This document shows, piece by piece, positions 36,901 to 64,000 of a stretch of DNA of 64,000 bases. Every line of letters starts with the position of its first letter. The stretch's first letter is position 1. The notes under the pieces are model-generated. The model was given only the letters and a program-made list of their open reading frames with translations, was not told where the DNA came from and did no database searches. This DNA comes from Planctomycetota bacterium. Its GTDB lineage: Bacteria; Planctomycetota; Planctomycetia; JALXBF01. The DNA lies in the NCBI GenBank assembly GCA_026981825.1, contig JALSID010000115.1:4198-68197 (forward strand), given 5' to 3'. A program made the translations under genes and the position numbers.

Positions 36901-38204
36901 GCACGGATAGCCCAGCAGTGGCAAGCGAGCTTCTGCAGCGGTGGCGAACTTACTCGCCCGAACTGCGCCGCCTCGTCGTTCGAACCCTGTTGCAGCGTCC
37001 CGTTTGGGCGAGTCAACTGGTAGCCGCGCTGCGCGCCGGTGTCCTAAACCGCGCCGACCTCACCCTGGACCAACGTCAGCTTCTGCTCGCTCATCCGGAT
37101 CGACACATCCGCGAACAAGCGCAGGCCCTGTTTCAGGGGGCCGTTGTGTCTGCAGGTCGAGAGGACGTCCTGAAGCGGTACCTTCCGCTCGCCGACCGGA
37201 AAGGCAATCCAACGGCAGGTCGGAAAGTGTTCGAGGAGAACTGTGCGAAGTGCCACCGGTTCGAGGAGATCGGTGAGGCGGTGGGCCCGGATCTGACCGG
37301 AGTAGCTGTTCGCGGTCGTCGCGCGATCTTGACGGACATTCTCGACCCAAACCGCTCGGTCGAGGGCAACTTTACCCAGTATCTCGTGCTCACCCGGGAC
37401 GGAAGGGTCTTGACCGGCCTACTTGCTGCCGAGACCCGCACCGCCATCGAGCTTATCGACACAGAAGGAAACCGCGTGATCGTCTTAAGAGAAAACATTG
37501 AAGAGATCACGAATTCCGGCAAGTCGCTCATGCCGGAGGGGTTTGAGCAGCAGCTTAAGCCCGAGCAGATCGTTGATCTGCTCGCCTTCCTGACTCAGCA
37601 ACGACGGTTCGTCCCGATCCCTATCCGGCGTGCTGCCACGATCGTGACGACCCAGGGCATGTTCTACCGCAAGGAGTCCCCCACCGAGCGATTGGTCTTC
37701 AGCGATTGGGGGCCGAAAACGTTTAAGGGAGTCCCGTTCCACCTCGTGGATCCCAAAAGCACGCTTCAGCCGAACGCGATCATGCTGTACAGCCCGAATG
37801 GTGCCGTCAGCCGAGAGATGCCGCGGCGTGCAGAGGTGGAGTGCAATCTGCCTGCCCGGGTTGTCCACATCCTGGGCGGCGTAGCCGGTTGGGGCTACCC
37901 GGCCTCACCCGCGGGTACGACCTCCATGGTCGTCCGGTTTCATTACGCCGACGGTTCCTCCGAGGACCACCGGCTGATCAACGGCGTACACGTCGCCGAC
38001 TACATTCGCGTGGTTGACGTACCCGGATCGGAGCTTGCCTTCGTCCTGCGGGGCAGACAGCTTCGCTACCTCGCGATCGAACCAAAGAAACGGGAAGTTA
38101 TCCGGAAGATCGAGTTTCTGAAAGGCGACGATAATACGGCCCCCATCGTAATGGCGATTACGGTCGAACTGCCCGGCGAAGGACGTGCCAGCTCGGGTAG
38201 CTAG
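33954..38204 (+). CDS. 1416-aa secreted multidomain protein. Domains: ThuA-like N-terminal domain, glucose/sorbosone-dehydrogenase-like beta-propeller ('membrane-bound dehydrogenase domain'), HEAT repeats, c-type heme CxxCH domain, C-terminal domain of unknown function (PVC-type heme-binding protein family)
   Basis: Signal peptide MTTRTMFRGKALCTIITVGLFCTILCPQTAHAA. Propeller-like blocks (DGDGRADK, DGDRRADV, FSPDGDVFVS). HEAT-like repeats (AVRRAAVQTLPP...). A single CAKCHRFEEIGEAVGPDLTG heme-binding motif is followed by LMPEGFEQQLKPEQIVDLLAFL. It is collinear with ORF 57821..61915 through the propeller, HEAT and heme regions. Confidence 0.8.
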   Translation: MTTRTMFRGKALCTIITVGLFCTILCPQTAHAADRVLVLGKSLSELLPDAYRATEQGLPSSAVPPELIEQHRAVIVDLTGVTPDRLDAVVTLARQFVQAGKGCVFVGVARELSPLSALVGAQVSGPTGAFKARLWFIDTGHPVSKGLRGTICPLKRIETGELSNDCRALVAAYQDGGLQPYVWLRRFPSRGRLFISLLPKETYTTPVFRELVARAVRWATGDLNLDRSVFRYKEVENIPVYRPDRRVERQTKMQLPLPAELSMQRYALPEGLRLQLFASEPLVVKPICMTFGPRGRLWVVESVDYPNNVLPNPERNGNDRIKILEDTDGDGRADKATIFADKLNIPTSLLHVRGGLLVACAPHILFLKDTDGDRRADVRRIVFTGFGRADTHAVHANFHYGFDNWIWATVGYSGGEIKLHGKRISFRQGVFRFKPDGSAFEFVAPTTNNTWGLGFSPDGDVFVSTANNQHSFYLAIPNRYFERVRGWYATGIARIEDHKRYHPIGPYRQVDFHGGFTAASGHNFYGDTRLLPIYNNRAALVTEPTGHLVHVCLPVQRGSGFVTRDGYNLVASDDEWAAPIAAAPGPDGAVWFLDWYNFIVQHNPTPPGFRTGLGNAYETPLRDKTHGRVYRVVAEGEARQEQPNFPDASDDELVALLGHESMWWRLHAQQELVERGDLSVAPKLESFARANRDSRAAIHVLWTLHGLGVTDELVRAARVCLGSKHPAVRRAAVQTLPPTRETVGILLEAGALSDDDFRVRLAVLLKFADCPPDDRIAAKLVGVFLDESVARDRWLPLAAICAAATNDVAFLKAACTVARASELLARAVEVVAEHWSRGAPAPEQFRQLVRTLQNASEPVLNAFCQGVIRGWPKGHDAGNLDESDRRLVLHLVRSTPPAVRPGLVLLFRRVGWSAPIGEFVAKVREELLHRLDNRSLPTRDRLEAAERLLRLDPSDETVRALVSRIAVAEPPEFNKSLIDFLARTDSPAVASELLQRWRTYSPELRRLVVRTLLQRPVWASQLVAALRAGVLNRADLTLDQRQLLLAHPDRHIREQAQALFQGAVVSAGREDVLKRYLPLADRKGNPTAGRKVFEENCAKCHRFEEIGEAVGPDLTGVAVRGRRAILTDILDPNRSVEGNFTQYLVLTRDGRVLTGLLAAETRTAIELIDTEGNRVIVLRENIEEITNSGKSLMPEGFEQQLKPEQIVDLLAFLTQQRRFVPIPIRRAATIVTTQGMFYRKESPTERLVFSDWGPKTFKGVPFHLVDPKSTLQPNAIMLYSPNGAVSREMPRRAEVECNLPARVVHILGGVAGWGYPASPAGTTSMVVRFHYADGSSEDHRLINGVHVADYIRVVDVPGSELAFVLRGRQLRYLAIEPKKREVIRKIEFLKGDDNTAPIVMAITVELPGEGRASSGS

Positions 38205-40928: not shown

Positions 40929-41344
40929 CGCGCACCTCCCGCCAGTGCTCTTTCGGAAAGCACGGTTCCGCCTGGCCATCCGATCGGTTTGCAATCTGCG
41001 TTCCGAAAGTACACGCGACAACGGCCGGTCCTGGCGTGAGGCGCCGGACTCCGAAAAACCGACCAACGCACGACCGGCGTTGAGGGCAACCGTGCCTTCA
41101 GCCGTCGGCGGCCGGCCAGCCGAGCCGGCTAGGTAGCGACAAGCTGACCGGGCGCCGCGCACAGTTGCCGCCCACGCTCGCCCACTCCTCCGCCGCTTAG
41201 CGGACCGACCAAACCGAGGCAGGCGGCCTGGTCGGCCCCCCGGAGCGGTCGTGGTCGCAGGGTGTTCTGGTCGCCAGTCGCATGGGCAATCCGATGCTGG
41301 ACGGAGTATACTCGGGAGCATGGATGTGCGTGCTGGAGGCGAAC

Positions 41345-44300
41345 ATGGGAAAGCTCACGCAGAAGGTTTGGCCCGCGGCCCTGGTTGGAGTTCTTCTCGT
41401 TTCCGTGGCCGGGGCGGCTCGCGAGGCTGTGGCCCAGAGCTATCCGGCCAATCCTGAGGCGGTGGTCCGGCAGCAGCGCGGGCCTGATTGGCGACGTCGC
41501 CCGGTCGCCCCGGAGATCCGCCTTCGGGAAGCCGAACTTCCGGTAGGTTCGGTGACCACAGTTTTCGTGCAGTTCGGCTTAAGGGACACGGGCCCGCGGG
41601 ACTGGTCGGGATCCGTCACGACCGAGGGAGCGCGCCTCGTACGCGTTCGTGGCTGGCGGTTCGCACCCGGAATGAGCGTGAGCGGGGCCTCCTGGACATG
41701 CGGCTCCTGGTGGGGGCCGCGTCCGGTGCAGCGCGTCTTTGACGTCCACCTGCCCGGCCGCTTATGGCCCTTCCTTCGGCCCGGACTGCTGATCGACCTC
41801 GAACACGTCTCCACTGCCGCCCGATTGCGTTTCAAAACCGCTCAGGGGGACTTCGATATCCCCCTTCGCGACATCCTCCGCATGGGGCAGCTCAGGCGGT
41901 TGCGCGGGGCGGTCCGGGCAACACTGGCCGTGTATGGACAGCCGGCCGGCGTCGAGCCGCTGCCAGACCATCCGGAGGAGCACACGTGGCACGACTGGCC
42001 TTCGGTGCTCGCCGATAACGGCGGGGCGTGGATCGCCTACCAGAGCTACCGACGGGGCCGCGGTGACGTCCTGGTCGTACGCCGCTTCGAAGCGAACAGC
42101 TTGACCCCCGTGCAAATCATTCAGCCCCCTGCCAACGACGTCTACCGTACGGCATTAGGTCGGGATCGAACGGGCCGGATCTGGCTGGTGGCCAGCGTCC
42201 AGGTGGAGGGCAACTGGGATCTCTACGGTTGGGTACGAACCAAGGGGGGCTGGCAAGGTCCTGAGCGCCTCACGCACGCTCCCTACTCAGATATCCATCA
42301 CGCGCTTGTTCGAGATGCTGACGGTTTGCTTTGGCTGGTGTGGCAGGGCTTTCGGGATGGCCAGAGCGATATCCTGGCCAGGGTGTTCGACGGCGAGCGT
42401 TGGTCGGAAACGGCGCGTATCAGCGAATCGCCCCGCAACGACTGGGAACCGAGTGCTTGCCCCTATCCCGGAGGGGGCATAGCTATCGTCTGGGACAGCT
42501 ACGACCAGGGCAACTACGACGTTTTCGCTCGGCTGGCACGGGCCGAGTCCGCGAGCCACGTTCAGGTGAGCCGGGTTTACCAGGTAACCAGTGGTTCCTG
42601 GCGCGATTGCCGGGCGAGCGTGGCGGCCGACCGCAAAGGGCGGCTCTGGATCGCCTTCGATCGCGGTGGCAAACACTGGGGCAAGGACACCGGCTATTGG
42701 CTTGAGCTGAAACGGATGCCCCAGGGCAGTCGCCTGTACGAGCACCGCTGGATCGAACTGCGCGTCCTCGACCCGAAGACCGGAGCGATCGATCTACCCC
42801 CGTCGTACCGGCACCCGGATAACTTCGATCCCTCGTTGATCGAATCGGCCGAGAGGCCGCAACTCATCGTGGACGACCAGGGCCGCCTGTGGCTGCTCTA
42901 TCGGCGTTACAGCACGAGCGACCGAAGCCGGCGGGGCGTCGGCTGGCGGTTCTACTGGGAGGCGTACATCACCGGGTACAACGCGACCGAAGGCCGGTGG
43001 GGGCCGGAGTTGCTCCTGGCGGACTCAACGGGACGACTCGATGCAGTACCCGGCCTGTCGCTCCACGAGGGGACATTGTGGATCGCGTGGCCGACGGATC
43101 ACCGCACGATCCTGGGCGCCCGCCCGGACGCAATGAGCGTGTTCGCGGGCATGCTGGACGTCTCCTTGGCGCCTCTCTCCGGGGAGCTGGCTGCGGTCAC
43201 GGGGAAACCGGCCCCCTTCGATGCGCCGGAGCCCGATCCGGTGCATCCTCACGAGGCCCTGGACCTGGCTCGGATCAGAAGCTACCGGGTCCAAACCGCC
43301 GAGGGGGAACTCCGCATCCTGCGCGGAGATATGCACCGCCATACGGAGAACTCGCAGGACGGGGGCAACGAAGGCTCGCTGATCGACGTCTATCGCTACG
43401 CCCTTGATGCCGCCTCGCTCGATTACCTCCTCGTTACAGACCACAATGACGGCTACGCACACTACCAGTGGTGGATCCGCGAGAAATCCAACGACCTGTT
43501 CCACATGCCGCCTTACTTCGTCACACTCTATGGCTACGAGCGAAGCGTGGGCTATCCGAACGGGCATCGCAACGTGTTTCTCCTGAACCGCGGCGTCGAG
43601 CCCTTGCCGATCCGACCGGACGAGCAGCCGCGGCGGGGACGTGTCCGTGCGGGCTCAGGCAAGTTCCTCTACCCATATCTGCGCGAAAACCAGGGCATTT
43701 GCTTTTCCCACACGAGCGCCACTGGCATGGGCACGGACTGGCGAGATAATGATCCCGAGCTGGAGCCGCTGGTTGAAATCTTCCAGGGCGACCGAACCAA
43801 CTATGAGATGATCGGTGCCCCCTGGGCAGCCGATCCCGACGACCCCAGCACTCAGGAAGGAGGCTTCCGACCGGCCGGCTTCGTCGTAAACGCCCTGCGG
43901 AAGGGATATCGGTTAGGCTTCCAGGCATCCAGCGATCATTTGAGTACCCACCTGAGCTACGCGTGCGTTCTCGCCCCCCGAAACCGGAGACGGGCGCTGT
44001 TCGAAGCCATGAAGAAGCGTCACACCTACGCAGCAACTGACAATATCATCGTCGATGTTAGGCTCGCTGCCGGTGACAGGGTTGCCATTATGGGGGACGT
44101 GACGAGCTGCACGTCGTACCCGAAGCTGAACATCTACGTCCGAGGCACGCGCCCAATCGAGAATCTGGTAGTTGTCCGATCGGGCGAAGTCGTGTTCTCC
44201 TGTGCTCCACGCGACACCATCGTTCACCTTACTTTCGAGGACACCCGTCCCGAACCGGAGGGGCCGCTGTACTACTACGTACGCGTGCAACAAACCGATG

Positions 44301-44350
44301 AGCGAATCGCGTGGAGCTCGCCGATCTGGGTCAAGCTTCAAATGAAGTAA
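41345..44350 (+). CDS. Secreted DUF3604-like protein: N-terminal BNR/sialidase-like repeat region plus C-terminal PHP-like metal-dependent phosphoesterase-like domain
   Basis: Start MGKLTQKVWPAALVGVLLVSVAGAA (signal peptide) at 41345. Repeated ..GR(I/L)W(L/I).. Asp-box-like blocks (DRTGRIWLVAS, DADGLLWLVWQ, DRKGRLWIAFDRGG, DDQGRLWLLY). PHP-like motif RGDMHRHTENS...LLVTDHND...GYERS...FSHTSATG. It is collinear with the partial ORF at 62319..64000. Confidence 0.65.
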   Translation: MGKLTQKVWPAALVGVLLVSVAGAAREAVAQSYPANPEAVVRQQRGPDWRRRPVAPEIRLREAELPVGSVTTVFVQFGLRDTGPRDWSGSVTTEGARLVRVRGWRFAPGMSVSGASWTCGSWWGPRPVQRVFDVHLPGRLWPFLRPGLLIDLEHVSTAARLRFKTAQGDFDIPLRDILRMGQLRRLRGAVRATLAVYGQPAGVEPLPDHPEEHTWHDWPSVLADNGGAWIAYQSYRRGRGDVLVVRRFEANSLTPVQIIQPPANDVYRTALGRDRTGRIWLVASVQVEGNWDLYGWVRTKGGWQGPERLTHAPYSDIHHALVRDADGLLWLVWQGFRDGQSDILARVFDGERWSETARISESPRNDWEPSACPYPGGGIAIVWDSYDQGNYDVFARLARAESASHVQVSRVYQVTSGSWRDCRASVAADRKGRLWIAFDRGGKHWGKDTGYWLELKRMPQGSRLYEHRWIELRVLDPKTGAIDLPPSYRHPDNFDPSLIESAERPQLIVDDQGRLWLLYRRYSTSDRSRRGVGWRFYWEAYITGYNATEGRWGPELLLADSTGRLDAVPGLSLHEGTLWIAWPTDHRTILGARPDAMSVFAGMLDVSLAPLSGELAAVTGKPAPFDAPEPDPVHPHEALDLARIRSYRVQTAEGELRILRGDMHRHTENSQDGGNEGSLIDVYRYALDAASLDYLLVTDHNDGYAHYQWWIREKSNDLFHMPPYFVTLYGYERSVGYPNGHRNVFLLNRGVEPLPIRPDEQPRRGRVRAGSGKFLYPYLRENQGICFSHTSATGMGTDWRDNDPELEPLVEIFQGDRTNYEMIGAPWAADPDDPSTQEGGFRPAGFVVNALRKGYRLGFQASSDHLSTHLSYACVLAPRNRRRALFEAMKKRHTYAATDNIIVDVRLAAGDRVAIMGDVTSCTSYPKLNIYVRGTRPIENLVVVRSGEVVFSCAPRDTIVHLTFEDTRPEPEGPLYYYVRVQQTDERIAWSSPIWVKLQMK

Positions 44351-52230: not shown

Positions 52231-53286
52231 ATGGAGACAGGACGACCACGCCGGTTGCATGTGCGGCACGAGGGAAACCGCGAGCACCTTGAGTACGCAC
52301 GGCAGGTGCTCGAAACCGAAGCCGCCGCTCTGCGAACCGTCCGGGATCGGCTGGACGAATCGTTCGCAGCGGCGGTGAATCTTTTGCTCACTTGCAAGGG
52401 ATCGGTCATTGTGACCGGCATGGGGAAAGCCGGCATTGTGGGCCAGAAGCTAGCCGCGACCCTTGCTTCCACCGGTACACGGGCGCATCCGTTGCATCCG
52501 GCCGAAGCGGTGCACGGTGACCTGGGCCGGATCGGTGCCGAGGACATCGTGCTTGCCCTGTCGTACAGTGGCGAAACCGAGGAGGTGGTGCGTCTTGTGG
52601 ATCCTGTGCGGCAGATCGGGGCGAAGCTGATCGCGATCACGGGCCGGGGCCAGTCCACCCTGGCGTGCGCCGCCGACGTAGCGATCGTGCTCGGCCCGCT
52701 CAACGAAGCCTGCCCCCTTGGGCTGGCGCCGAGCACATCCACCACCGCGATGATGGCTGTAGGCGATGCCCTTGCCTTCGCCGTTAGCAAGGCGCGGCGG
52801 TTTGAACCAGAACAGTTCGCCGCGTTTCACCCTGCGGGCAGCCTCGGGAAACTATCCCAGTCGGTTCGAAACCTGATGCGGGTTGGAACTGAGGTGCGGT
52901 TGGCCCACACGGGACGAACCGTGCGCGAGGCGCTGATCGAAGCCCACCGGCCCGGCCGCCGTACCGGCGCAATGCTGATTGTCGACGAACGCGGCGTGCT
53001 GCAGGGCATCTTCACCGATGGCGACCTGGTTCGGCTGCTCGGACGAACCGACCTGGACGATCCGCTTGAGCTTCCGATCGAGCACGTGATGACCAGGAAT
53101 CCGGCGACGATCGGGGAATCGGCCACCGTGCGCGAGGCGGTGGAACGGCTGTCACGGGGGAAGTTCAGCCAGTTGCCCGTTCTCGATGAACACGGCCGCC
53201 CGATAGGCATTCTTGACATCACCGACGTGATCACGCTCATCCCAGACCTGGACCGTGAGCAAGACTCGACGGCCAAAGCTGCCTGA
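52231..53286 (+). CDS. kdsD: Arabinose-5-phosphate isomerase (SIS domain plus tandem CBS domains), KdsD/KpsF/GutQ family
   Basis: SIS motif VIVTGMGKAGIVGQKLAATLASTGT and C-terminal CBS pair; followed 15 nt later by kdsC. Confidence 0.85.
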   Translation: METGRPRRLHVRHEGNREHLEYARQVLETEAAALRTVRDRLDESFAAAVNLLLTCKGSVIVTGMGKAGIVGQKLAATLASTGTRAHPLHPAEAVHGDLGRIGAEDIVLALSYSGETEEVVRLVDPVRQIGAKLIAITGRGQSTLACAADVAIVLGPLNEACPLGLAPSTSTTAMMAVGDALAFAVSKARRFEPEQFAAFHPAGSLGKLSQSVRNLMRVGTEVRLAHTGRTVREALIEAHRPGRRTGAMLIVDERGVLQGIFTDGDLVRLLGRTDLDDPLELPIEHVMTRNPATIGESATVREAVERLSRGKFSQLPVLDEHGRPIGILDITDVITLIPDLDREQDSTAKAA

Positions 53287-53300
53287 ACGGGGACCGACTC

Positions 53301-53834
53301 ATGGCGGCGGACGAGAAGGAACTGCTCGAAAAAGCGCGGGCAATCGAGCTGCTGGTCCTCGACGTGGACGGGGTCTTGACCACAGGCGACATTCTCGTAG
53401 GCGACGACGGCCGCGAGTGGAAACAGTTCTACGTGCGTGACGGGGCCGCTCTGGCCTACTGGCACCGTATGGGCAAGAAGTCCGCGATTCTGAGCGGACG
53501 GATCAGCGAGGCCGTGTACCACCGGGCAGCCGAGCTAGGCGTCCACGAAGTGGTGCAAGGTCGGCTTGACAAGGGACGGGCAGTCGAAGAACTTGCCACA
53601 AGGATGGGCGTACCGCTGGAGCGGGTCTGCTTCATCGGGGATGACCTGGCCGACCTGAGCGCGCTGGCCCGAGTGGGCCTGGCCGCGGCCGTGGCCGATG
53701 CGGTAGCGGAGGTGAAAAGCAAAGCAGATTATGTCACAGAACTGCCGGGAGGGAAAGGAGCAGTCCGGGAACTGGTCGAGTTCCTGCTTCGTACCCAGGG
53801 GGTCTGGGAACAGGTGCTTGAGATCTACGACTAG
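53301..53834 (+). CDS. kdsC: 3-deoxy-D-manno-octulosonate 8-phosphate phosphatase (HAD superfamily, KdsC)
   Basis: HAD motif I LVLDVDGVLTTGD, about 177 aa, typical KdsC size and synteny after kdsD. Confidence 0.8.
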   Translation: MAADEKELLEKARAIELLVLDVDGVLTTGDILVGDDGREWKQFYVRDGAALAYWHRMGKKSAILSGRISEAVYHRAAELGVHEVVQGRLDKGRAVEELATRMGVPLERVCFIGDDLADLSALARVGLAAAVADAVAEVKSKADYVTELPGGKGAVRELVEFLLRTQGVWEQVLEIYD

Positions 53835-53890
53835 GTCACGAGGCCCCACGTACCGCACGTAGGGAAACCATCGAAGGAGTTGCAACTGTC

Positions 53891-56800
53891 GTGGTCCGTC
53901 GCGTCGTCACGGCAGCCATTGCATTCACCGCCCTGATGTTTTTGTACGCCCTCTACCTCGCGGCGTTCCGCCGCTTCTGGGCGCTGCAAAAACTGCCCAC
54001 CGACCTTCTGCCCCCTACGAGCGCACCTCGGTACACGGATCTGGTCAACACCAAGGAAGACATCGCCACCGAGGTGGCCGCAGAGGTCTTCGGTGGTGAC
54101 GCCTGGCAAACGCGGGCAGTGATTAGCCTGTACTGGGCCGAACAGGGGTTCTTTCTGTATGCGAACGAGTACGCGTTCCCGACCAAACAGAGCATGACCC
54201 TGGCACCGGTCAGTGTCGTGCGGAAACGCACGCTCGAGGGGGGTCACGTGGAGTATCTTGTGCTGCAGGCGGAAAAGGCATCGATTACGTTTGATCGGCC
54301 CATCAGCCTAACCGACTTTTCAGCCGCTCGCCCGGTCCGGGCGCAGGCGTCCGGTAACGTGGTCGTCGGCTGGAACCGCGGCACGCCGGACGAAAACGAC
54401 GACGTGACTGCTTATCTGACCGACCTGGTCTTCGACCGCAATCGCAAGCTTGTCTGGACATCGGGCGAGCTCAGGGTGACGAGCGACACGATGTCGCTCA
54501 ACGGCCACGGGGGGCGGATCACGCTCCGCGGCGGGCAAGACGGCCGGCTGGAAGTGGAATCCCTGCAGGTAAGCCGACAAGTACGCGTGGAAGGGCTTCT
54601 CAGCGATCGAAACCGCAGCCTGCTCGTAGCCACCGAAAGAGGTGGCTCGCGTTCCAAACCCAGCAAGGGGGGCAGAGAACAGTATCTGGCGATCGAGTGT
54701 CGTGGGCCACTTGTTCTCGATGCCGCTGGTCTGCAGGCGATCTTCCACAGGGACGTGGTCGTCACGGTTCAAACTCCTGGGCTATCACCTGACGTAGTGC
54801 GAGCCGATGAGCTCCGGCTAGCATTTGCGCGCGTGACCGAACCATCGGAAGGTTCGGCTGCGGCGGTCTCGAACCGGCTTACGTTGAAGCTTGCTGAGGC
54901 GGTCGGTCAGCCGGTGGTGGTCAGTTCCCCCACACGTCGTCTGACGGCCAGCGCGACCAACATGGCCTACGACATGACCACGCGGGTGCTCAGCCTTGAG
55001 TCGCCTTCGGGAGTGCAGGCGTCCTATGGGGCGCTGGACATTCGCGTTGCTCGGCTCAGACTGCAGATTGGCAGCCCAGGCGCGTTGCAGGGGGAAGCCC
55101 CGGGTCCTGGAGAACTGGTGGGAAAAGGGAAAGCGGGCGCGGATTCAGAGGGAATCCGCGCCTCCTGGCAAGAAAGCGCCCGCCTTGAGCTTGTGGACGG
55201 ACGACATGTCGTCACGCTCACGGGCAATGTGCGGGTCGAGCAGCCCGGGCGTGGCGAGATGGTGGCCCAGCGATCGGTCCGGCTCTGGTTCAACGGTTCG
55301 GCGAAGCCTACCGCGGAGAAGAGTTTTTCCCTTCCTGAGCGGATCGAAGCGACCGGCGGTGTGGTTCTCACCTCCGACGATTTGGTCTTGCGCACGGAAC
55401 TCCTGATCGCTCGTTTTACACCGGCCAAACGAAGGGACTCAGACGCCCCCGAAAAAAATTCCCATGAGGACGCGCGTGCCAGCCCCGAGTCTGCGAGTCC
55501 GAGCTTCGTCTTCTGCCAGGACGTGGAACGGGGGCCGGTGATCAGGATCCGGGCCGTTACGCCGGCTGTTTCACCGGCAGATTCCGAAGTACCCCCCGGA
55601 CCGGCCGACGGTACACCGCCTGATGGAGGCGAAGAGCACCACCGGCCCGGCCGCCGGATCGAGATCACAGCGGGCCGCATCCGCGCCGATATCGAGGCCG
55701 GCCCTGAGAAATTCGTAGCTCGCGAAATGTGGGCAGACGAGGCCGTATCAATCGTGGAGCGGCTCTCCGAAGAACAGTCCGGCCTCACCATACACGGCGA
55801 CAATGTACACGCCCGCGGGCTCGACGGTAGCTACTTCTTCGAAATCACCGGCCAGCCTGCCCTGGTGAGCACCGACACCCTGACGCTCCACGGCAAGCTC
55901 ATCGGCCTCGATCAGGCAACGCAGGTCGCCTGGGTACGGGGGGAAGGCAACGCTGTCTTCCGCACCGATGTTGCCCTTTCCCTGGACGAACAGGCCGGCG
56001 GGAACGTGCAGATCGTCTGGTCCCGCGACATGTTCTTCGATGGCCTGGTGGCGGAGTTCACGGGCGCGGTCCGGGTGGAACAGGGTCAGACGGTGCTCAC
56101 CTGCGAGCGGCTCGAGGCGCACTTGAGCGAACGGATCCAGCTCGCACGCCGGCCCCAGCAGGCTGCCCCCCCAATCCTCGCCCGGCTCATCGCCACAGGA
56201 GCAGTAGAACTACGTCGCCAGAGCGATCAGGGCATTACGAGGATCGAAGGCCCCCGCGTCGTCTATTCACGTCAGGACAATAAGATCGTCGTGGCCGGCC
56301 CAGGCCGGTTCTGGTCCAGCGGCAGGGGGTCGCCGGCAGTCCTTCGTCCCGCCGCTCCGCCCCCCCAGGATCCGCGCTGGAAGGGTACTCTGGTGCTGTT
56401 CGATCGGCTCATGGACGTCGACCAGGACAAAGGCCTGGTCCGCTTCGTCGGCCGCGTGCGTGTGTGGCACGCGCCGATCGATGGTCCGGATCGCGAGTTC
56501 TCCCATGCGGCACCACCGTCCGAGGCCATGTTCGTCGGCTGTGACCAACTCGAGCTGCTCACGACCAAAACCACCGGAGTGGCGTCCGTAGGCGAGACGG
56601 GCTCGATCCAGAAGCTCATCGCGCGTGGCAATGCCAAGATCCATGGCCAGGGCTTCTACGCTTACGCCGATGTCCTCAAATACGACACCACGGGCGGCGA
56701 AGAAAAGATCATCGCCGAGGCGAGCGAAACCGGTTTTGCTACCTTCTACCGCCAAACCGTCCCCGGACGCCGCCCCGACGTGCTACGCGCCCGAAAGATC

Positions 56801-56896
56801 ACCTACTGGCCCGTCACGGGGGAGTTCCGCCAGGAAGGTGGCATCATGCTAAATGTCCGGGAAAACGGCCCCCTCCGCCAACGAACCCGCCGCTGA
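53891..56896 (+). CDS. 1001-aa membrane-anchored protein, candidate expanded LptC/LptA (OstA-N-like) lipopolysaccharide transport protein
   Basis: N-terminal TM anchor (VVTAAIAFTALMFLYALYLAAF). Recurrent LptA-like '(T)GNV/GNA...' beta-jellyroll blocks (LTGNVRVEQPG, GEGNAVFRTD, ARGNAKIHGQGFYAYAD). Position immediately after kdsD-kdsC matches the conserved kdsD-kdsC-lptC-lptA order. The family assignment is an inference. Confidence 0.4.
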   Translation: MVRRVVTAAIAFTALMFLYALYLAAFRRFWALQKLPTDLLPPTSAPRYTDLVNTKEDIATEVAAEVFGGDAWQTRAVISLYWAEQGFFLYANEYAFPTKQSMTLAPVSVVRKRTLEGGHVEYLVLQAEKASITFDRPISLTDFSAARPVRAQASGNVVVGWNRGTPDENDDVTAYLTDLVFDRNRKLVWTSGELRVTSDTMSLNGHGGRITLRGGQDGRLEVESLQVSRQVRVEGLLSDRNRSLLVATERGGSRSKPSKGGREQYLAIECRGPLVLDAAGLQAIFHRDVVVTVQTPGLSPDVVRADELRLAFARVTEPSEGSAAAVSNRLTLKLAEAVGQPVVVSSPTRRLTASATNMAYDMTTRVLSLESPSGVQASYGALDIRVARLRLQIGSPGALQGEAPGPGELVGKGKAGADSEGIRASWQESARLELVDGRHVVTLTGNVRVEQPGRGEMVAQRSVRLWFNGSAKPTAEKSFSLPERIEATGGVVLTSDDLVLRTELLIARFTPAKRRDSDAPEKNSHEDARASPESASPSFVFCQDVERGPVIRIRAVTPAVSPADSEVPPGPADGTPPDGGEEHHRPGRRIEITAGRIRADIEAGPEKFVAREMWADEAVSIVERLSEEQSGLTIHGDNVHARGLDGSYFFEITGQPALVSTDTLTLHGKLIGLDQATQVAWVRGEGNAVFRTDVALSLDEQAGGNVQIVWSRDMFFDGLVAEFTGAVRVEQGQTVLTCERLEAHLSERIQLARRPQQAAPPILARLIATGAVELRRQSDQGITRIEGPRVVYSRQDNKIVVAGPGRFWSSGRGSPAVLRPAAPPPQDPRWKGTLVLFDRLMDVDQDKGLVRFVGRVRVWHAPIDGPDREFSHAAPPSEAMFVGCDQLELLTTKTTGVASVGETGSIQKLIARGNAKIHGQGFYAYADVLKYDTTGGEEKIIAEASETGFATFYRQTVPGRRPDVLRARKITYWPVTGEFRQEGGIMLNVRENGPLRQRTRR

Positions 56897-57059
56897 TTCT
56901 GCAAGAGCGTGCTCCATCCGCACAACCCGGTCCCCTGCTTATCAAGTGCCCGTCATCGTCAGCCCAGTACCACTGCGGTGCACGCGCTTTTCGGATAGCC
57001 TCCAACCAGCAGCCCCGGTGAACACCAGATCACCTGGTCGAACCGTTCCGTGGTCGAGG

Positions 57060-57815
57060 TTACTCTGCCTCTCCACCCGGCAGCGGCCGCAGCTCGTTAC
57101 TCCGCAGAGCGAGCACCGTGCTCCTCAGCAAGGCCGCCAATTTCGCGCGCGCCAGGCCGAACAGGTCTTCCACAGGCGCCGAGACTACCTCCCACTGATG
57201 GGGGACACCGATCGCGACCAGCTTGTCATGCAACCGCTCGATCCCCCGGAACCAGGTCGCATCGTCCCGGTTGGCCAGCAGGCTGATCGCAAGAGGCCGG
57301 TTTAGGGGGTTAATCCAGAGCGTTGCGGTCAACTGCCGCGCGCTCTCGACATCCGGAAACACCCGCTGGAGCAGTTCATCCTCCCAATAGCGCTGGTGAA
57401 AATCGATCCAGGGCTGCACGGCAGCAACCCCGGCGAACCGCCGGGGATGGCGGAAGGCGATTCGCAAGGCACCCTGACCGCCCGTGCCAACCCCGCTCAG
57501 CACGACCTGAGCGGGCCGATACCGCTCGTGCAGCCAATCAAAGACGGCTTCGGCCACCCACGCGTCCGGCGTGAGCTGCGCGTCGAATTCTTCCACCTGC
57601 CGGTGGAGCCACCACGTACCCCGGGCCTCCAGCAGAACCACGGGACAGCGCAGTTGCTCAGCTTCCTCCTCGATCAGCTCTGCGCACGCAAACGGCTCGA
57701 ACAAATCGTGCCCCAAACACACAATCGCGGTGTCCCCCACCGCCTGCGGCTTATACACCAGCGTTTGATGGCCGACAACGCGATGCTCCTGCCAGCGATC
57801 GGACGGCACGTGCAC
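57060..57815 (-). CDS. Esterase D / 'putative esterase' family alpha/beta-hydrolase homolog with the nucleophile Ser replaced by Gly (GVGTGG in place of GHSMGG)
   Basis: LSGVGTGGQGALRIAFRHPRRFAGVAAVQP aligns to the esterase-D consensus ..AGHSMGGHGAL.IAL.NP..F..V.A..P with a Ser-to-Gly change. It starts 5 nt after the stop of the upstream giant gene, on the same strand. Confidence 0.55.
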   Translation of the reverse strand: MHVPSDRWQEHRVVGHQTLVYKPQAVGDTAIVCLGHDLFEPFACAELIEEEAEQLRCPVVLLEARGTWWLHRQVEEFDAQLTPDAWVAEAVFDWLHERYRPAQVVLSGVGTGGQGALRIAFRHPRRFAGVAAVQPWIDFHQRYWEDELLQRVFPDVESARQLTATLWINPLNRPLAISLLANRDDATWFRGIERLHDKLVAIGVPHQWEVVSAPVEDLFGLARAKLAALLRSTVLALRSNELRPLPGGEAE

Positions 57816-57820
57816 CTCCT

Positions 57821-60800
57821 TTACTGACCACCAGCAGTCTGGGCCGCAGAATCGCCCAGCAAACGAACCTTGAGGTTACGTATTCGCACCGCAAATCCGT
57901 CGTCGCTCCTGATCTCGAATCCGACGGCGCCGCGCAACCGAGCCGCGGGATCGTCATGCTCACGCAGCACTTTCCCATCCCGGTACAGCGTTAGCCGCGA
58001 ACCCTGAGCAACGAGCCGCACGGCCCCGGACCTCGCCCCCGTCAGCCCGGCGGATGGCAGGAGAATGCCGCGCCCCCCACGCTCCAGGACCGCTCCAGAG
58101 CGCGGCCCTGTCAGAGGAATCTGGTAGCCAACGAGTTTGCCGTCGGTTCCAAACCCACACCGGAACAGAACCGAGAACTCTCCCGCTCCATCGACCTCAT
58201 AATCGAAGGAAAGCTCGAAATCCTCAAACTCGAATTCCGAAAGGATGACCGTACTGCCCCCGTTGAGCCGCCCCTCCAGCGTTCCGTTCTCGGCGCGCCA
58301 GGTCGGGCCGGTCACGAGCCAGTAGGTAAGATCGGTTCCCGAGAAGAACAGCGAGATGTTGCCCGGTCGGGCGAGGATCGGGGTCTGCCGGGGACTGGCG
58401 AGATACGCGAAGAGGGAACGCACCTCATGGGGCGTGAGTTGTTCCAGCAGGTTGTCGGGCATCATCGACTGCTCCGATTGCCGCATCGCCTCGATCTCGT
58501 CCCTGGCCAACGTCAGTTGCTCGTCGGCAGTCTGGACCACCAGGTACCGGTCCGTTTGCTGACGTACGATACCGGTAATGACTCGACCGTCGGCGGTCGC
58601 AATGATGTGCGGGATGTAGTCATTGGCCATGACCGCAGAGGGGTCGAGCACGTTGGAAAGAGCGTAGTCGAGGTCGGCCCGGTTGGAACCGGTCAAATCT
58701 GGCCCCACGTGCCCGCCCTTACCGAACAACGTGTGACATTGGGCACAGATCTTTTGGAACACAGCGCGTCCCAGGGCCACATCTGGGGCGGGAAGGTCGG
58801 TCCTTTCGATCAGCTTGCGGTAGCGTTCGATCAGCGCCTGCTTCTCTGCGTCGCTTCGCCGCACATGCCCCCAAACTTTTTCGATGCGTTTTCGAAGGTT
58901 GTCGTCGGACACATTGACAAGCTGCCGAATGAGATCAGCAGTGAGGTCGGTTCGGGGCACCGTTCCATGAGCCACCGCGTCGAGCAACTTCGCCGCCCAC
59001 TCGCGTCTGGTACTGAGCACCGCCAGTGTCGCTCGCTTTTCGAGGGGGCGAAGCTTGGGATAGCGATCCAGTAGGATCTTCGGCAAGACGGGATCCGCCA
59101 CGGCAGCGGCCCCCCGAATCGCCCGGCTCGTCAGAGCTTCGCTGTCCCGACCATCGGTCAGGACGCGCACGATCTCGACCAGAGCCGGATCGTGCACCTG
59201 GATGAGCGCATCGAGGGCTCGCATTCGGCTCGGTTGAGGGGCTGAACGATCCAGGACGACGTCACGCAGGGAACGCAAGGCCGCTTTATCGCCAAAGCGA
59301 ACGCTTAAGCCGACCACCGCATCACGCACCCGGGCATCGGGGCTGCGCATCAGCCGAACCGCAACCTGGGCCCATCCTGCCGGCGGAGCGATTTTCCTTT
59401 TCCCTTTCAACGCCGTTTCGAAGGCCGCCAGGATCTCGAGTTGTTCTTCCACCGACTTCGAACTGCCCAATGTGTTCGTGAGCAGCTCCAGAGCCTCAGC
59501 CGTACCCAGATCGCCAACCCGACGGAACGTGAAGCGTCGCACCAACCGAATGGCGCCTTTCCGCGCCACCTGGATCGCCCGGGGGGGATCGGACGCCACC
59601 AGGGGTTCAAAAGCGTACCAGTACATGTACGGCAGGTTGTGATCGGTGTTGTCCTCCGCATGAGCCAGCAGCCTTCGCAGAACTTCCCACCGCTGCGACA
59701 GGTCGGTCCGCTGCATGGCGGAGGCCAGGTAGAGCCGCACAATGGGTGAGGGGTCATGGGCAGCAAGATCGGGCAGCCGCTGGACCAGCTCCGAAGGGGG
59801 GGAATCCTCAAAACCGAGCTGAATGGCCCAGGCGCGGACGTACTCGTTCTTGTCTTCCAACATGCGGGTGAGGTCGCTAGGACGGAGCGCGTTGCAGACG
59901 TGCAGGGCCCACGCCGCACGCAGCCGGTGCCGTGGATCCGGAGCCGTCGCCAGGCTCTTCCGCAACAGCTCGATCGCGTCGGCGCTCACCCCGCCGGAGG
60001 CTGCCCGCTCCTGAAGGAGCCGCCTGGCCACGCGCACGTACCAGTCGTTCGGATGATGTTGCAGCCTGGCAAGCTCAACATCGCTCAGTCTGGCCAGGTC
60101 CAGCTTGCCCGACCGATACTGCTGCAGCAACCGCGCGTACAAGGAATCGGTTGGACGGGCCTGCCGATCTTGACCGCTGTCCCGATACACGATCTTGTAC
60201 ACCCGCCCGTTCGATCGGTCGTGCACTCGGGGGTCGGTCCGGTGGCACTGGTTACGGTCGTACCAGTCGATGACAAAGACCTGTCCGTCTGGTCCGTACC
60301 GCAGGTAGAGCATTTGCGACCAGTAATCGCCCGTGATCAGGAAATCCGGCCCGTGATGGCCGACGAACCCGGAGCCGCGGCGTTCGAGGATGTCCATATT
60401 GGTTCGTGCTCCGTGGATGTTGTTCATGAACAGCTTGCCGCGGTACTGCGCGGGCCAGGCGTCGCCCAGGTAGACCATGGCGCCGGCATGAGCGTGGCCA
60501 CCCCCGGCTGCTACAGTGTCTGCCGGAGTGATCGGGGTGTGGCCCCAGTGAGCGTGTTCCTGTATGGCCCCCTTGTAGTGGAGATGGTCGGCGATGGTCT
60601 TGATGTCGTCGTAGACGTAGGGATTGAAATGCTGCCCCGCCTGTCTCTGGTACCTGCCCCCTTGGATTACATGGTACAAGTGGGGGATCACGCATGCGGT
60701 GATGAATGCCTGGCCGAAGTCGTCGAAGTCCACACCCCAGGGGTTACTCGTCCCGTAGGCAAACACTTCGAAACGCTTCTTGACCGGATGGTACCGCCAG

Positions 60801-61915
60801 ACGCCCGCATTAATCCGCACACGCTGCTCATCCGGTGTGCCCGGTTTTCCCACCCGCGAATGGGTGAAGACGCCGTGACATCCGTACAGCCAACCGTCCG
60901 GGCCCCAAATGAACGAGTTCAGTGTCTCGTGTGTGTCCTGATAGCCCCAGCCGTCCAAGACAACCTCCGGTGGCCCATCCGGACGGTCGTCTCGGTCTCG
61001 ATCGGGGATGAACAACAGATAGGGTGCGGCGCCCACCCATACCCCACCGAAGCCGACCTCGATACCGCTAACCAGGTTGAGCCCGGTGCAGAAGATTTTG
61101 CGGCGGTCCATCCTCCCATCGCCGTCCGTGTCCTCGAAAATCAGGATCCGGTCCTTCCCCTTACCCTCCGGCTGGCGAACGGGGTAGGTGTACGCCTCCA
61201 CCACCCACAGGCGGCCGCGTTCGTCGATGGTCATGGCGATCGGTTGGCGCACATCCGGTTCGGCGGCAAAGACGCGCACCTCGAACCCAGGGGGAAGCTG
61301 CATGACCCGGGCTGCCTCTTCTGCTTTCAGGCCCTGGTACGGGAACGGGTTGTCGGCACGGGCTTGGATTTTTGGGGGGGCATCGTGGAGACGGAAGTCA
61401 TCGAAGTTGATGTGGCCCCAATGGCCCGAGTGTTGATCGATTACGCGGACAAACGCCACTTTGCCCAGGTGCTTGCGCAGATCGACGACAACCCGGCGCA
61501 TGTCCTCGCGGTCCTGACCGGACGCCTGGAACAAGACCGTTCCATCAGCGAGAACCACTTCCACGCGGGTCTCCTTGTGATGGCCGCCCCCCACCAGAAA
61601 GCTCGCCCAGGGTTTCGTAATCCGAAACGGGCTGGAGACGAGTACGCCAGTGGGGGCGTCACCCCCCACCTCGTACGTCCCGATCCAGTACTGGCCCTGA
61701 TGTCTGCTGTGCATATCCTGCCGCCTACGGTGGACGGTGTCCCCCCGAACAGGCTGACCACGAAACGCTTCTCCTTCGGCGCGCCAGTCACGAAGGTCAC
61801 CGGTCTCGAAATCCAGGTTCAGTGGCCGACCGTCCAGACCGACCGGCAGATCACCATCGGAACCGGACCGAGCGGCCAGACCGGCGAGAAGAAGAGCAGC
61901 TACCAGGCGGAGCAT
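57821..61915 (-). CDS. 1364-aa secreted multidomain protein (paralog of 33954..38204). Domains: N-terminal ConA-like/DUF1080-like jelly roll, glucose/sorbosone-dehydrogenase-like beta-propeller, HEAT repeats, c-type heme CxxCH domain, C-terminal DUF1080 (3-keto-disaccharide-hydrolase-like) domain
   Basis: Start MLRLVAALLLAGLAARSG (ATG 61913-61915; the listed ORF begins 36 codons earlier with no signal peptide). Heme motif CAQCHTLFGKGGHVGPDLTG...LMPDNLLEQLTPHEVRSLFAYL is collinear with CAKCHRFEEIGEAVGPDLTG...LMPEGFEQQLKPEQIVDLLAFL in the other copy. Propeller blocks (FEDTDGDGRMD, PDRDRDDRPD) and HEAT repeats are present. C-terminus WRAENGTLEG...DFELSFDYEV...VLFR is DUF1080-like. Confidence 0.8.
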   Translation of the reverse strand: MLRLVAALLLAGLAARSGSDGDLPVGLDGRPLNLDFETGDLRDWRAEGEAFRGQPVRGDTVHRRRQDMHSRHQGQYWIGTYEVGGDAPTGVLVSSPFRITKPWASFLVGGGHHKETRVEVVLADGTVLFQASGQDREDMRRVVVDLRKHLGKVAFVRVIDQHSGHWGHINFDDFRLHDAPPKIQARADNPFPYQGLKAEEAARVMQLPPGFEVRVFAAEPDVRQPIAMTIDERGRLWVVEAYTYPVRQPEGKGKDRILIFEDTDGDGRMDRRKIFCTGLNLVSGIEVGFGGVWVGAAPYLLFIPDRDRDDRPDGPPEVVLDGWGYQDTHETLNSFIWGPDGWLYGCHGVFTHSRVGKPGTPDEQRVRINAGVWRYHPVKKRFEVFAYGTSNPWGVDFDDFGQAFITACVIPHLYHVIQGGRYQRQAGQHFNPYVYDDIKTIADHLHYKGAIQEHAHWGHTPITPADTVAAGGGHAHAGAMVYLGDAWPAQYRGKLFMNNIHGARTNMDILERRGSGFVGHHGPDFLITGDYWSQMLYLRYGPDGQVFVIDWYDRNQCHRTDPRVHDRSNGRVYKIVYRDSGQDRQARPTDSLYARLLQQYRSGKLDLARLSDVELARLQHHPNDWYVRVARRLLQERAASGGVSADAIELLRKSLATAPDPRHRLRAAWALHVCNALRPSDLTRMLEDKNEYVRAWAIQLGFEDSPPSELVQRLPDLAAHDPSPIVRLYLASAMQRTDLSQRWEVLRRLLAHAEDNTDHNLPYMYWYAFEPLVASDPPRAIQVARKGAIRLVRRFTFRRVGDLGTAEALELLTNTLGSSKSVEEQLEILAAFETALKGKRKIAPPAGWAQVAVRLMRSPDARVRDAVVGLSVRFGDKAALRSLRDVVLDRSAPQPSRMRALDALIQVHDPALVEIVRVLTDGRDSEALTSRAIRGAAAVADPVLPKILLDRYPKLRPLEKRATLAVLSTRREWAAKLLDAVAHGTVPRTDLTADLIRQLVNVSDDNLRKRIEKVWGHVRRSDAEKQALIERYRKLIERTDLPAPDVALGRAVFQKICAQCHTLFGKGGHVGPDLTGSNRADLDYALSNVLDPSAVMANDYIPHIIATADGRVITGIVRQQTDRYLVVQTADEQLTLARDEIEAMRQSEQSMMPDNLLEQLTPHEVRSLFAYLASPRQTPILARPGNISLFFSGTDLTYWLVTGPTWRAENGTLEGRLNGGSTVILSEFEFEDFELSFDYEVDGAGEFSVLFRCGFGTDGKLVGYQIPLTGPRSGAVLERGGRGILLPSAGLTGARSGAVRLVAQGSRLTLYRDGKVLREHDDPAARLRGAVGFEIRSDDGFAVRIRNLKVRLLGDSAAQTAGGQ

Positions 61916-62318
61916 CGACTTACCCCCGCATGCGTTGTTCGCGAAACACAGGATGTTCGAACTTAATTCTAAACTCGGCTCGGGGCTGTGCCCCCGAATA
62001 ACCTGCAAGACCCCTGGCATCACGACGCTTCCTTACAGCTCCATGCCGATCGGCTCACGCGGTACGGTCAGCGCCGCCGGCCGGTGACATGTTTGCCCGC
62101 ACCGCGGAGCCCGGTGCACATCGAGGCGTGCCACCCTTTGGGTTGGCGGGCCCCCCATGCCCAGACGTCTGGCCTGAGCTGGTTCGTGTTGGAACCACAT
62201 ATCTTCCGTGCCCGCGCCCGGCACTTCCTCTCCCACCAAGAGGCGTCACTGAAGAGATGCCGGTCGGTGCACGATTAGGTATCCTTTGAATCGGACCCAC
62301 CCGCCGGAGGAGAAGGAG

Positions 62319-64000
62319 ATGGTACGCACCGTGCGATTCACGCAAGCGCTCGCGGTCCTGACTGCCCTGGGCATGCTGTTCGCCAGTGTGCTGCTTGGAA
62401 CAGTCCGCGGGACGTCACATCAACAGCGGAAGAAGACAGCTCATGTGCCGTCCGACGAGCTCCTTGCGGCTCCGCTGACCAGGCAGGTGCGTCGTGCGAA
62501 CGCGCCGGTGTCGGAGTATGTGCAGGACATGATCGAGCGTGCTGAAGCAGGAGGGGCATCGGTCCTTTCCGTGGGCGATTCGTATGACGACTTCGCATCG
62601 GTAGCGGTGACCTCGGATGGCGCGGTCTACGTAGCGTACGCGTCCTACTACAACGGGCACGACCAGATCCGGCTGCATCGTTTGCTCGAGAACGGTACCT
62701 GGTCCACGCACACGTACGTTCCCCTTGCCACCCCACGCCCGGACATCTGGATGCCACAGATAGCCGCGGACAGTCGTGGCCGCCTTTGGGTGATTTGGTC
62801 TGAGCAAGTGGGTATCGGATCGGGCAACTTTGAGTTGTTTGCCCGCTCGTTCGACGGCACCCAGTGGGGGCCGCTCGTGCAACTCAGCGACAATCCCGGC
62901 CCGGACATCAACCCCCATGTTCACGTGGCACCCGACCGCACCATCCATGTGGTTTGGCAAGCTCATCCGCACCAAAATGGAGACATCTACTACACGGTCT
63001 TCGACGGTCACGAGTGGGCTCCGCCGCGGGCCATCACCTCCGATGCCGCCAGCGACTGGTATCCCCATGTTGCAGTGGACCGGGCAGGGATTCCCTGGGT
63101 GGTTTTCGATAGCTACCGCAATGGGGACTACGACGTGTTCTTGACCGCTGCCGGCGGCGAGTATGCGGGCAAGCTGATCCCGATCGCAACGTCCGGCTAC
63201 TACGAGGCGCACGCCAGTCTGGCCATTGGCTCGGATGGACGGATCTGGATCGCTTGGGAGCAAGGCGGCTGGAACTGGGGTAAGGATCAGGGTTACTGGC
63301 TGCGTCGCGAGAACCGCAACGTGGGCTCTCCGCTGGGCAGCACACGACGGGTCGTCGTGGCAGCGTGGAAGGGGGGCACACTGCAGGCTGCGCCATCGGT
63401 GAGCAGCAGCCTCTCCGGCGGTGGGGCCCGTCACAACACCGCTTTGCCTGAACTTGCGTCGGACCGGCATGGTCGCATCTGGCTTCGGTTCCGCCGCCAG
63501 GTCCGGCGCCCGGTGGCCAATCGAGCGCGTCGGCTGTGGATCGAGCAGATCACTTACTTGACCCCCAACGGCTGGGCGCCCGCGGTGGCGTTGCCGGCAA
63601 GCGCCGGACGGATCAGCGTGTTTTCGCGGCTTGCACCGGCGTCCGATGGGGGCCTGTGGGTGGCTTACTCTGCCGATGGCCGCGCGCTGCCAAACCCGCA
63701 CCGTCCACTCCATGACCTTGCGCTGGTGAAGAAAATCACCCCGCCCGATACTCCGCCTGCCGTTCCCAGTGAGCTTCCTCCGTACGATCCGCCGGTGCCC
63801 CCCGAGCAAGCGCGGCAGTGGGATCGGGAACGCGAGGCGAAGCAGGTGGCGGCGATACGCAAGCACCGCGCCAGGATCGGCGCTCACGAGGCACGCATCT
63901 TCCGGGGCGATTTACACCGGCACACGGAACTGAGCTGGGACGTTGGCCCGGGCAACGACGGTTCCTTCCTCGACTTCTACCGGTACATGATCGACGTTGC
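62319..64000 (+). CDS. DUF3604-like protein, second paralog (BNR-like repeats plus start of PHP-like domain), partial; continues past window end
   Basis: GGAGG precedes the ATG at 62319 by 7 nt. MVRTVRFTQALAVLTALGMLFASVLLG is a signal/TM N-terminus. The frame stays open to 64000. It is collinear with 41345..44350: DSRGRLWVIW vs DRTGRIWLVA; FDSYRNGDYDVFL vs WDSYDQGNYDVFA; GRIWIAWEQGGWNWGKDQGYWL vs GRLWIAFDRGGKHWGKDTGYWL; ends IFRGDLHRHTELSWDVGPGNDGSFLDFYRYMID vs ILRGDMHRHTENSQDGGNEGSLIDVYRYALD. It is absent from the ORF track because it is unterminated. Confidence 0.7.
   Translation, partial: MVRTVRFTQALAVLTALGMLFASVLLGTVRGTSHQQRKKTAHVPSDELLAAPLTRQVRRANAPVSEYVQDMIERAEAGGASVLSVGDSYDDFASVAVTSDGAVYVAYASYYNGHDQIRLHRLLENGTWSTHTYVPLATPRPDIWMPQIAADSRGRLWVIWSEQVGIGSGNFELFARSFDGTQWGPLVQLSDNPGPDINPHVHVAPDRTIHVVWQAHPHQNGDIYYTVFDGHEWAPPRAITSDAASDWYPHVAVDRAGIPWVVFDSYRNGDYDVFLTAAGGEYAGKLIPIATSGYYEAHASLAIGSDGRIWIAWEQGGWNWGKDQGYWLRRENRNVGSPLGSTRRVVVAAWKGGTLQAAPSVSSSLSGGGARHNTALPELASDRHGRIWLRFRRQVRRPVANRARRLWIEQITYLTPNGWAPAVALPASAGRISVFSRLAPASDGGLWVAYSADGRALPNPHRPLHDLALVKKITPPDTPPAVPSELPPYDPPVPPEQARQWDREREAKQVAAIRKHRARIGAHEARIFRGDLHRHTELSWDVGPGNDGSFLDFYRYMIDV

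Follow-up and report, generated by a model that had tools for sequence, protein, structure and literature searches.

A small gene in a 64,000-nucleotide (nt) stretch of the genome of a Planctomycetota bacterium (contig JALSID010000115.1; the whole stretch is termed the window here) raises the question of what an esterase homologue may do without its nucleophilic serine, and whether it is tied to the giant heme protein encoded directly upstream. The gene is found on the minus strand at 57060..57809 and encodes an Esterase-D/PF00756-type alpha/beta-hydrolase homologue of 249 amino acids (aa) plus stop, which is catalytically degenerate and without a signal peptide. An initial annotation of this DNA proposed a pseudo-enzyme or binding module that accompanies the heme protein. 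Comparative analysis of sequences makes it fairly probable that the gene product is a non-catalytic protein of the cytoplasm, descended from a serine esterase that is conserved in planctomycetes. It is about equally probable that the former substrate cleft keeps a binding role and that co-transcription with the giant gene reflects gene order rather than a complex.

The fold and the former active site

At the level of domain profiles, Pfam PF00756 gives 24.8 bits with the protein (cutoff 22), in an alignment confined to residues 85-146 (residue numbers are those of the 249-aa protein). A direct phmmer alignment places GvGtGGqGAL of the window protein opposite GlSmGGyGAL of esterase 4rgy. When 36 relatives are combined in a profile, the alignment with 4rgy covers nearly the full length (E 3.9e-16), and the profile also aligns to structures of esterase D, FrmB, EstA and Ag85. 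The window protein has the alpha/beta-hydrolase fold of the esterase D/Ag85 type, and these alignments bear out two statements of the initial annotation, i.e. that Ser is changed to Gly in an elbow that reads GVGTGG, and that the rest of the fold is conserved.

In the family profile alignment, the catalytic Ser lies in GxSMGG after strand beta5, the Asp after beta7 and the His in GGH after beta8. The window protein has Gly108, Asp183 and Asp215 at these positions. Gly108 (codon GGC, 57486-57488) is part of the sequence GVGTGGQGALR (residues 106-116, 57462..57494), which forms the nucleophile elbow and the start of helix C. The GGH loop is represented by V213-E214-D215 (57165..57173), where Asp takes the place of the catalytic His. 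The oxyanion motif HG after beta3 is absent as well; LGHD (residues 32-35, 57705..57716) appears as a degenerate form of the family LHG. Of the four catalytic elements, Ser, His and the HG motif have been lost, and Asp183 (57261..57263), at the catalytic acid position, is the sole triad residue kept. With Gly for the nucleophile, Asp for His and the HG motif lost, the alignments are taken to show that the predicted protein cannot act as a serine hydrolase, i.e. cannot form an acyl-enzyme.

A motif search of the entire window protein found no GxSxG, GxCxG, GxDxG, SxxK or GDS. Ser105 and Thr109, which flank the elbow, were considered as alternative nucleophiles and rejected; they are unconserved even in the closest relatives, which read CGVGIGG and LGVGMGG. 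An identity as S-formylglutathione hydrolase was rejected on the TIGR02821 (fghA) score, 24.5 bits against a cutoff of 281.7. The pseudo-enzyme proposal comes out stronger than first made, as the His and the HG motif are lost along with the Ser and the gene appears to be under purifying selection (see below). The data support the view of a constrained, well-folded and catalytically dead esterase homologue. No signal peptide was found at the N-terminus, as judged by inspection, and the protein is probably cytoplasmic.

At the elbow itself, the change from Ser to Gly creates a resemblance to a GxGxxG strand-loop-helix. In the phmmer search, the elbow segment VVLSGVGTGGQGALRIAFRHPRRF (residues 102-116, 57462-57506, in the translation of the small open reading frame) shows a weak similarity (E 0.04) to the Gly-rich loop with which DXR binds NADPH; this is probably a chance match.

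A planctomycete family with recurrent loss of serine

The window protein belongs to a family of unnamed ∼250-aa proteins that lack a signal peptide and are confined to Planctomycetota. A pattern scan of species-representative genomes gives at least 401 family loci, and an exhaustive hidden Markov model (HMM) search of 1.84 billion representatives gives 166 matches below 1e-30. Family motifs are (RS)WW, Gx[S/G]MGGQGALR, PAIDFH, ESARQDTA and HPLNWP. By inspection, 192 of 197 members are without an N-terminal hydrophobic segment. The window protein displays the family properties: WW, Gx[S/G]xGGQGALR, ExxRQxTA, a length of ∼250 aa and no signal peptide. All invariant columns of alignment A1 (G107, G111, G112, Q113, G114, A115, E156, P173 and G202) are present in it. 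The (RS)WW motif, which is found family-wide and is retained in members without Ser, appears as TWW (residues 65-67, 57609..57617), and the cap-helix motif E-x-x-R-Q-x-T-A, near-invariant in members with and without Ser, as VESARQLTA (residues 154-162, 57324..57350).

Among the 80 best genome loci of the family, to which all figures out of 80 refer, the Ser-Asp-His triad is present in 76 and Gly is found at the nucleophile position in three (L001, L043 and L070). Grouping of neighbouring genes by de novo clustering across the 80 loci reveals two recurrent neighbours. One is a divergent hpt-like phosphoribosyltransferase gene upstream (31 loci). The other, at 18 loci, is an LptA/OstA-like gene of ∼1000 aa that converges on the family gene and has kdsC and kdsD behind it. 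The LptA-like block is present at all three Gly loci, which are among the 18. In the window this block consists of kdsD (SIS+CBS, 52231-53286), kdsC (HAD, 53301-53834) and the LptA/OstA-like gene (1001 aa, 53891-56896). All three are on the plus strand and convergent on the esterase homologue, and the block (52231..56896) serves as the family's conserved anchor of synteny. On the hpt side, the window has instead the giant heme protein gene and a divergent gene for an 878-aa protein. Since the window gene shares its chromosomal position with the Ser-Asp-His members, it is by position the orthologue of the active esterase rather than an additional paralogue. No second copy of the esterase homologue was found in the window.

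Two other leads were examined at the family level and discarded. Apparent tandem paralogues (119 open reading frames in the 80 loci) are shadow or alternate-frame reading frames with no match to the family HMM. Domain fusions in P0180, P0123, P0112 and P0114, considered as clues to function, are outgroup multi-esterases or extensions without a recognisable extra domain.

Of 77 Ser-bearing loci, 75 encode the catalytic Ser by AGC; the codon in the window is GGC, and a single A>G transition suffices for the change. A neighbour-joining (NJ) tree of 196 full-length members, read by Fitch parsimony, has 16 changes between Ser and non-Ser, with Ser at the root. At least nine groups without Ser share 59-74% identity with a Ser-bearing protein and have lower identity among themselves. 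At the nucleophile position, the more divergent representatives (133 at 50% identity that cover it) have G 78, S 38, E 10, D 3, A 2, V 1 and C 1. It seems that Ser was lost many times by one AGC>GGC transition in an orthologous, apparently single-copy gene. Recent cases (e.g. P0017, P0007 and P0009) retain the HG motif and the His, and older ones have neither, so that Ser appears to be lost first and the remaining elements later. The window clade (the window, P0002-P0005 and L001) has only 36-40% identity to any member with Ser, and therefore represents an old dead lineage.

This raises the question of whether such proteins are in slow decay, i.e. remnants without remaining function that await deletion once catalysis became dispensable. 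The stepwise order of loss is what decay might leave behind, and sequences without Ser do evolve faster and occupy many clusters at 50% identity. In addition, between the window and L083 the esterase homologue (53% identity) is less conserved than the giant (63%), kdsC (70%) and kdsD (78%). However, it is no faster than the adjoining LptA-like gene (45%). The reading frames have stayed intact across saturated synonymous divergence, and in the window clade the proportion of non-synonymous differences (pN 0.30-0.37) is well below that of synonymous ones (pS 0.71-0.75). Motif conservation is strong in the 91 sequences without Ser: the WW loop, the elbow GGQGALR, PAIDFH and the cap helix E..RQ.TA are as conserved there as in Ser-bearing members, and relaxation is seen in the RS before WW, the GGH loop and the following helix. 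The gene in the window also has a strong Shine-Dalgarno sequence and tight operon spacing. Finally, the replacement of active-site residues by Asp is non-random and not scattered. These comparisons are considered to show that genes without Ser are intact and, as far as codon differences can tell, under purifying selection; slow decay is an unlikely explanation.

The Asp replacements affect two columns of the former active site. At the oxyanion Gly (HG>HD), Asp is found in 52 of the 91 members without Ser and in one of 105 with Ser; at the catalytic His, the numbers are 21 of 91 and one of 105. Ancestral codons are GGC/GGT for the oxyanion Gly and CAC/CAT for the His. From mutation alone, Ser would arise at the Gly site as readily as Asp, but the observed numbers are four for Ser and 52 for Asp; at the His site, Tyr or Arg would be expected more readily than Asp. 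A crude estimate from the NJ tree is roughly 15-17 gains of Asp per site. We read these patterns as an acidification of the former active site in members without Ser; such a site may bind something or may only be plugged by its own residues. The acidic residues of the window protein are D35 (57705-57707), D183 (57261-57263) and E214/D215 (57165-57170), all encoded on the minus strand.

It is proposed that the former substrate cleft has retained a non-catalytic binding role, for a ligand or a protein. In members without Ser the cleft would have been made acidic, through Asp in the places of the oxyanion Gly and of the His, and sometimes Glu in that of the nucleophile. Perhaps the same residues serve instead in an enzyme with new chemistry, in which carboxylates (Asp35, Asp182/183, Glu214/Asp215) or a bound metal replace Ser. 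The recurrence of Asp at the oxyanion Gly and His positions and of Glu or Asp at the nucleophile would suit such an enzyme, as would the retention of the cap and elbow motifs. Nevertheless, no one arrangement of carboxylates is conserved: the His-loop is deleted in 22 of the 91, the acid is lost in ∼30% of the members without Ser, and acidic residues shift position even within the window clade. To our knowledge there is no precedent within PF00756 for carboxylate or metal chemistry in place of Ser, and this alternative is regarded as quite improbable. A broader possibility, somewhat less remote but still doubtful, is that the state without Ser is itself a convergent new function, to which many lineages would have come independently by placing carboxylates in the former active site after the one-step loss of the nucleophile. 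An acidic pocket might bind a cation, a basic ligand or a peptide, as in a sensor or adaptor, or carboxylate/metal chemistry might take place there. In the window clade, operons for secreted redox or PHP-type proteins might have taken up the gene.

Glu in place of the nucleophile (GxEMGG) is found in about 11-12 members (P0032, P0034, P0035, P0054, P0076, P0079, P0089, P0091, P0095, P0098, P0121 and P0132). A single step leads to Glu from the Gly codons GGA/GGG, and the catalytic His is missing from most of the members with Glu.

The junction with the giant heme protein gene

The giant gene (57821..61915, minus strand) encodes a PVC-type heme-binding CxxCH protein of 1364 aa from the likely start ATG 61915; the mechanical open reading frame is 57821-62023. 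This ATG opens a classical Sec signal peptide, MLRLVAALLLAGLAARS, as judged by inspection. The protein matches TIGR02604 with 409 bits and has HEAT repeats. On the same strand, DUF7133 is encoded at 60182-61324, a TIGR02603 cytochrome c domain at 58394-58786 with its CAQCH heme site at 58733-58747, and a C-terminal DUF1080 at 57863-58351.

The giant gene ends with TAA at 57823-57821. In the list of reading frames the small gene spans 57060..57815 (minus strand), which extends it to GTG 57815. The initial annotation placed the start 5 nt after the giant gene; this is correct for the first in-frame GTG, at 57815, but the likelier start is GTG 57809, 11 nt past the stop codon. A Shine-Dalgarno-like AGGAGG, read directly from the sequence at 57815..57820 on the minus strand, precedes GTG 57809 by 5 nt and abuts the TAA. 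The identical 249-aa protein with the start at 57809 has been called in three independent assemblies (ENA, Logan and JGI). The small and giant reading frames are in different frames, which excludes a read-through fusion. A scan of 56700-62500 found no promoter-like sites and no terminator in the 11-nt junction, and the terminator-like matches in that region fall inside genes. Co-transcription of the giant and the esterase homologue is plausible in the window, because of the 11-nt gap and the lack of a terminator between the genes.

Does co-transcription signify partnership? One possibility is that the small protein is a binding module, an accessory subunit or an export/assembly chaperone dedicated to the giant heme protein. 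The junction itself, with its 11-nt gap, strong Shine-Dalgarno sequence and absence of a terminator, fits a dedicated accessory. The P0002/L081 lineage has the same order, giant then esterase homologue, with a gap of 14 nt. Furthermore, the three clade lineages with enough flank (the window, L081 and L083) all have a giant heme gene no more than 3 kb away. On the other hand, the giant gene adjoins the esterase homologue only in the narrow clade of the window, and the two genes follow one another on one strand in two of five lineages there. In the P0003, P0004 and P0005 lineages, the gene directly upstream and co-oriented with the esterase homologue encodes an 873-aa secreted protein with Reg_prop-like repeats and a DUF3604/PHP-like C-terminus, a homologue of the window's 878-aa protein. 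In L083, where the contig is long enough to show it, the giant is on the opposite strand. The divergent pair formed by the giant and 873-aa genes beside the esterase homologue is inverted in some lineages, and the gene upstream of the esterase homologue is not conserved.

Across the family, a conserved synteny of heme gene and esterase homologue is ruled out: a PVC-type heme gene is found within 10 kb at two of the 80 loci, and at neither is it upstream and on the same strand. Other members without Ser have no heme neighbour at all; for example, Gly-type P0013 has the LptA-like/kdsC/kdsD block and Gly-type P0047 has the hpt side, neither with a heme gene. The loss of Ser predates and exceeds the giant-gene neighbourhood. 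The compartments differ as well. Heme proteins of the c type with signal peptides mature outside the cytoplasm; the giant has a Sec signal peptide and CxxCH and is therefore matured there, whereas the esterase homologue has no export signal. The proposal that the small protein accompanies the heme protein finds no support in these comparisons, and a dedicated accessory role is considered highly unlikely. The giant-gene neighbourhood seems to have come about by local rearrangement and to reflect no partnership. In the window lineage the esterase homologue may be read from the giant's transcript, only because a divergent giant/878-aa pair came to sit upstream in this clade, inverted in some lineages. 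The two would then share expression and not a physical complex.

Several points weigh against the reading preferred here, that of a selected, non-catalytic protein whose cleft keeps a binding role and whose tie to the giant gene is one of gene order. In all five of the clade lineages the gene closely follows one or other of two genes for secreted proteins, and a functional link with these could exist; junctions are 11-18 nt in the three unambiguous cases, ∼100 nt in L092, and an apparent 34-nt overlap in L094. With respect to the losses of Ser, the NJ tree is crude and fast sequences without Ser may be misplaced in it, so that the number of independent losses, ∼9-16, is uncertain. The residue counts from the 133 representatives are subject to bias, as the search profile is enriched in sequences without Ser and clustering at 50% over-counts fast evolvers. 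Values of dN/dS are rough, since dS is saturated. As for the cleft, that the conserved and acidic residues line a single one is deduced from canonical alpha/beta-hydrolase topology and not from measured distances, and the HD dipeptide of the window protein is one residue out of register with the family HG/HD column.

A second homologue without Ser (L092/L093, P0005), with 57% identity and situated behind an 873-aa-type gene, is found in the samples of the window contig L085/L086 (ERZ27262642 and SRR7968108). Either a sister population with the alternative gene order occurs in these samples alongside that of the window, or one genome has two copies.

Known relatives, annotation and other genes of the window

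The closest structural neighbour of the window protein is MPT51/FbpC1 of Mycobacterium tuberculosis (PDB 1r88), a non-catalytic member of the Ag85/PF00756 group, with which it has 13% sequence identity. Unlike MPT51, which is a secreted paralogue that exists beside active Ag85A/B/C, the window protein lacks a signal peptide and is, by position, the orthologue of the active form. Esterase D/S-formylglutathione hydrolase and FrmB/EstA/FphF-type structures (4rgy, 3e4d, 3fcx, 2uz0 and 6vh9) have the fold, the strand order and the elbow-helix sequence xGGxGAL(R) in common with the window protein, with template modelling (TM) scores of 0.65-0.73. In contrast to these, the window protein lacks Ser, His and HG, is ∼30 residues shorter, and has the family-specific WW and ESARQxTA motifs. 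The planctomycete members with an intact Ser-Asp-His triad probably work like the esterase D/FrmB-type enzymes. Literature on MPT51/Ag85 and on planctomycete DUF1080/cytochrome proteins gave general background only and nothing on the family.

In neuroligins, which are cholinesterase-like adhesion molecules, the catalytic Ser of the GESAG elbow is changed to Gly. The same elbow change is found in the window protein; the tight turn is kept and catalysis is abolished. In neuroligins the fold has been reused for binding. They differ in that they belong to PF00135, are eukaryotic and extracellular, arose once after a duplication and have known partners, whereas the planctomycete loss is recurrent in an orthologous bacterial gene. 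Pseudo-enzymes mostly arise after gene duplication. Non-catalytic alpha/beta-hydrolases are already known; what is unusual here is the recurrent loss in an orthologous gene together with the repeated gain of Asp. If this is confirmed, the selected function of the family would not be hydrolysis, or not hydrolysis alone. The family would also provide a natural series of intermediates, from Gly with His and HG intact to fully remodelled sites, for studying the change from an enzyme to a binding protein. With respect to the function of the giant heme protein, the small gene provides no clue.

Source pipelines name members without Ser (clusters P0039, P0041, P0042 and P0054) S-formylglutathione hydrolase FrmB or pimeloyl-ACP methyl ester carboxylesterase. 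Both labels are a systematic mis-annotation, because the labelled proteins have no nucleophile. Metabolic reconstructions of Planctomycetota should exclude members without Ser as S-formylglutathione hydrolases or carboxylesterases.

Divergent from the giant gene, the 5′ part of the gene for the 878-aa secreted protein is found at 62319..64000 on the plus strand. This protein also has Reg_prop-like repeats and a DUF3604/PHP-like C-terminus, displays the motif GDLHRHTELS, and forms a conserved divergent pair with the giant gene. Its homologue in L083 (5472-8093) has 71% identity, and the giant/878-aa pair is inverted there. A 490-aa open reading frame listed at 62415-63887 on the minus strand has no family matches and is a shadow of the 878-aa gene, to which it lies antisense; the 878-aa gene continues past the end of the window and is therefore missing from the list of reading frames. 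Another protein, of 1022 aa and with the domain combination of the 878-aa protein, is encoded at 41282-44350 (plus strand). The window also contains another giant PVC-type heme protein gene, at 33954-38204 (plus strand). In its 1416-aa product, a ThuA-like domain at the N-terminus precedes DUF7133, HEAT repeats and cytochrome c, an architecture unlike that of the giant upstream of the esterase homologue, which ends in DUF1080.

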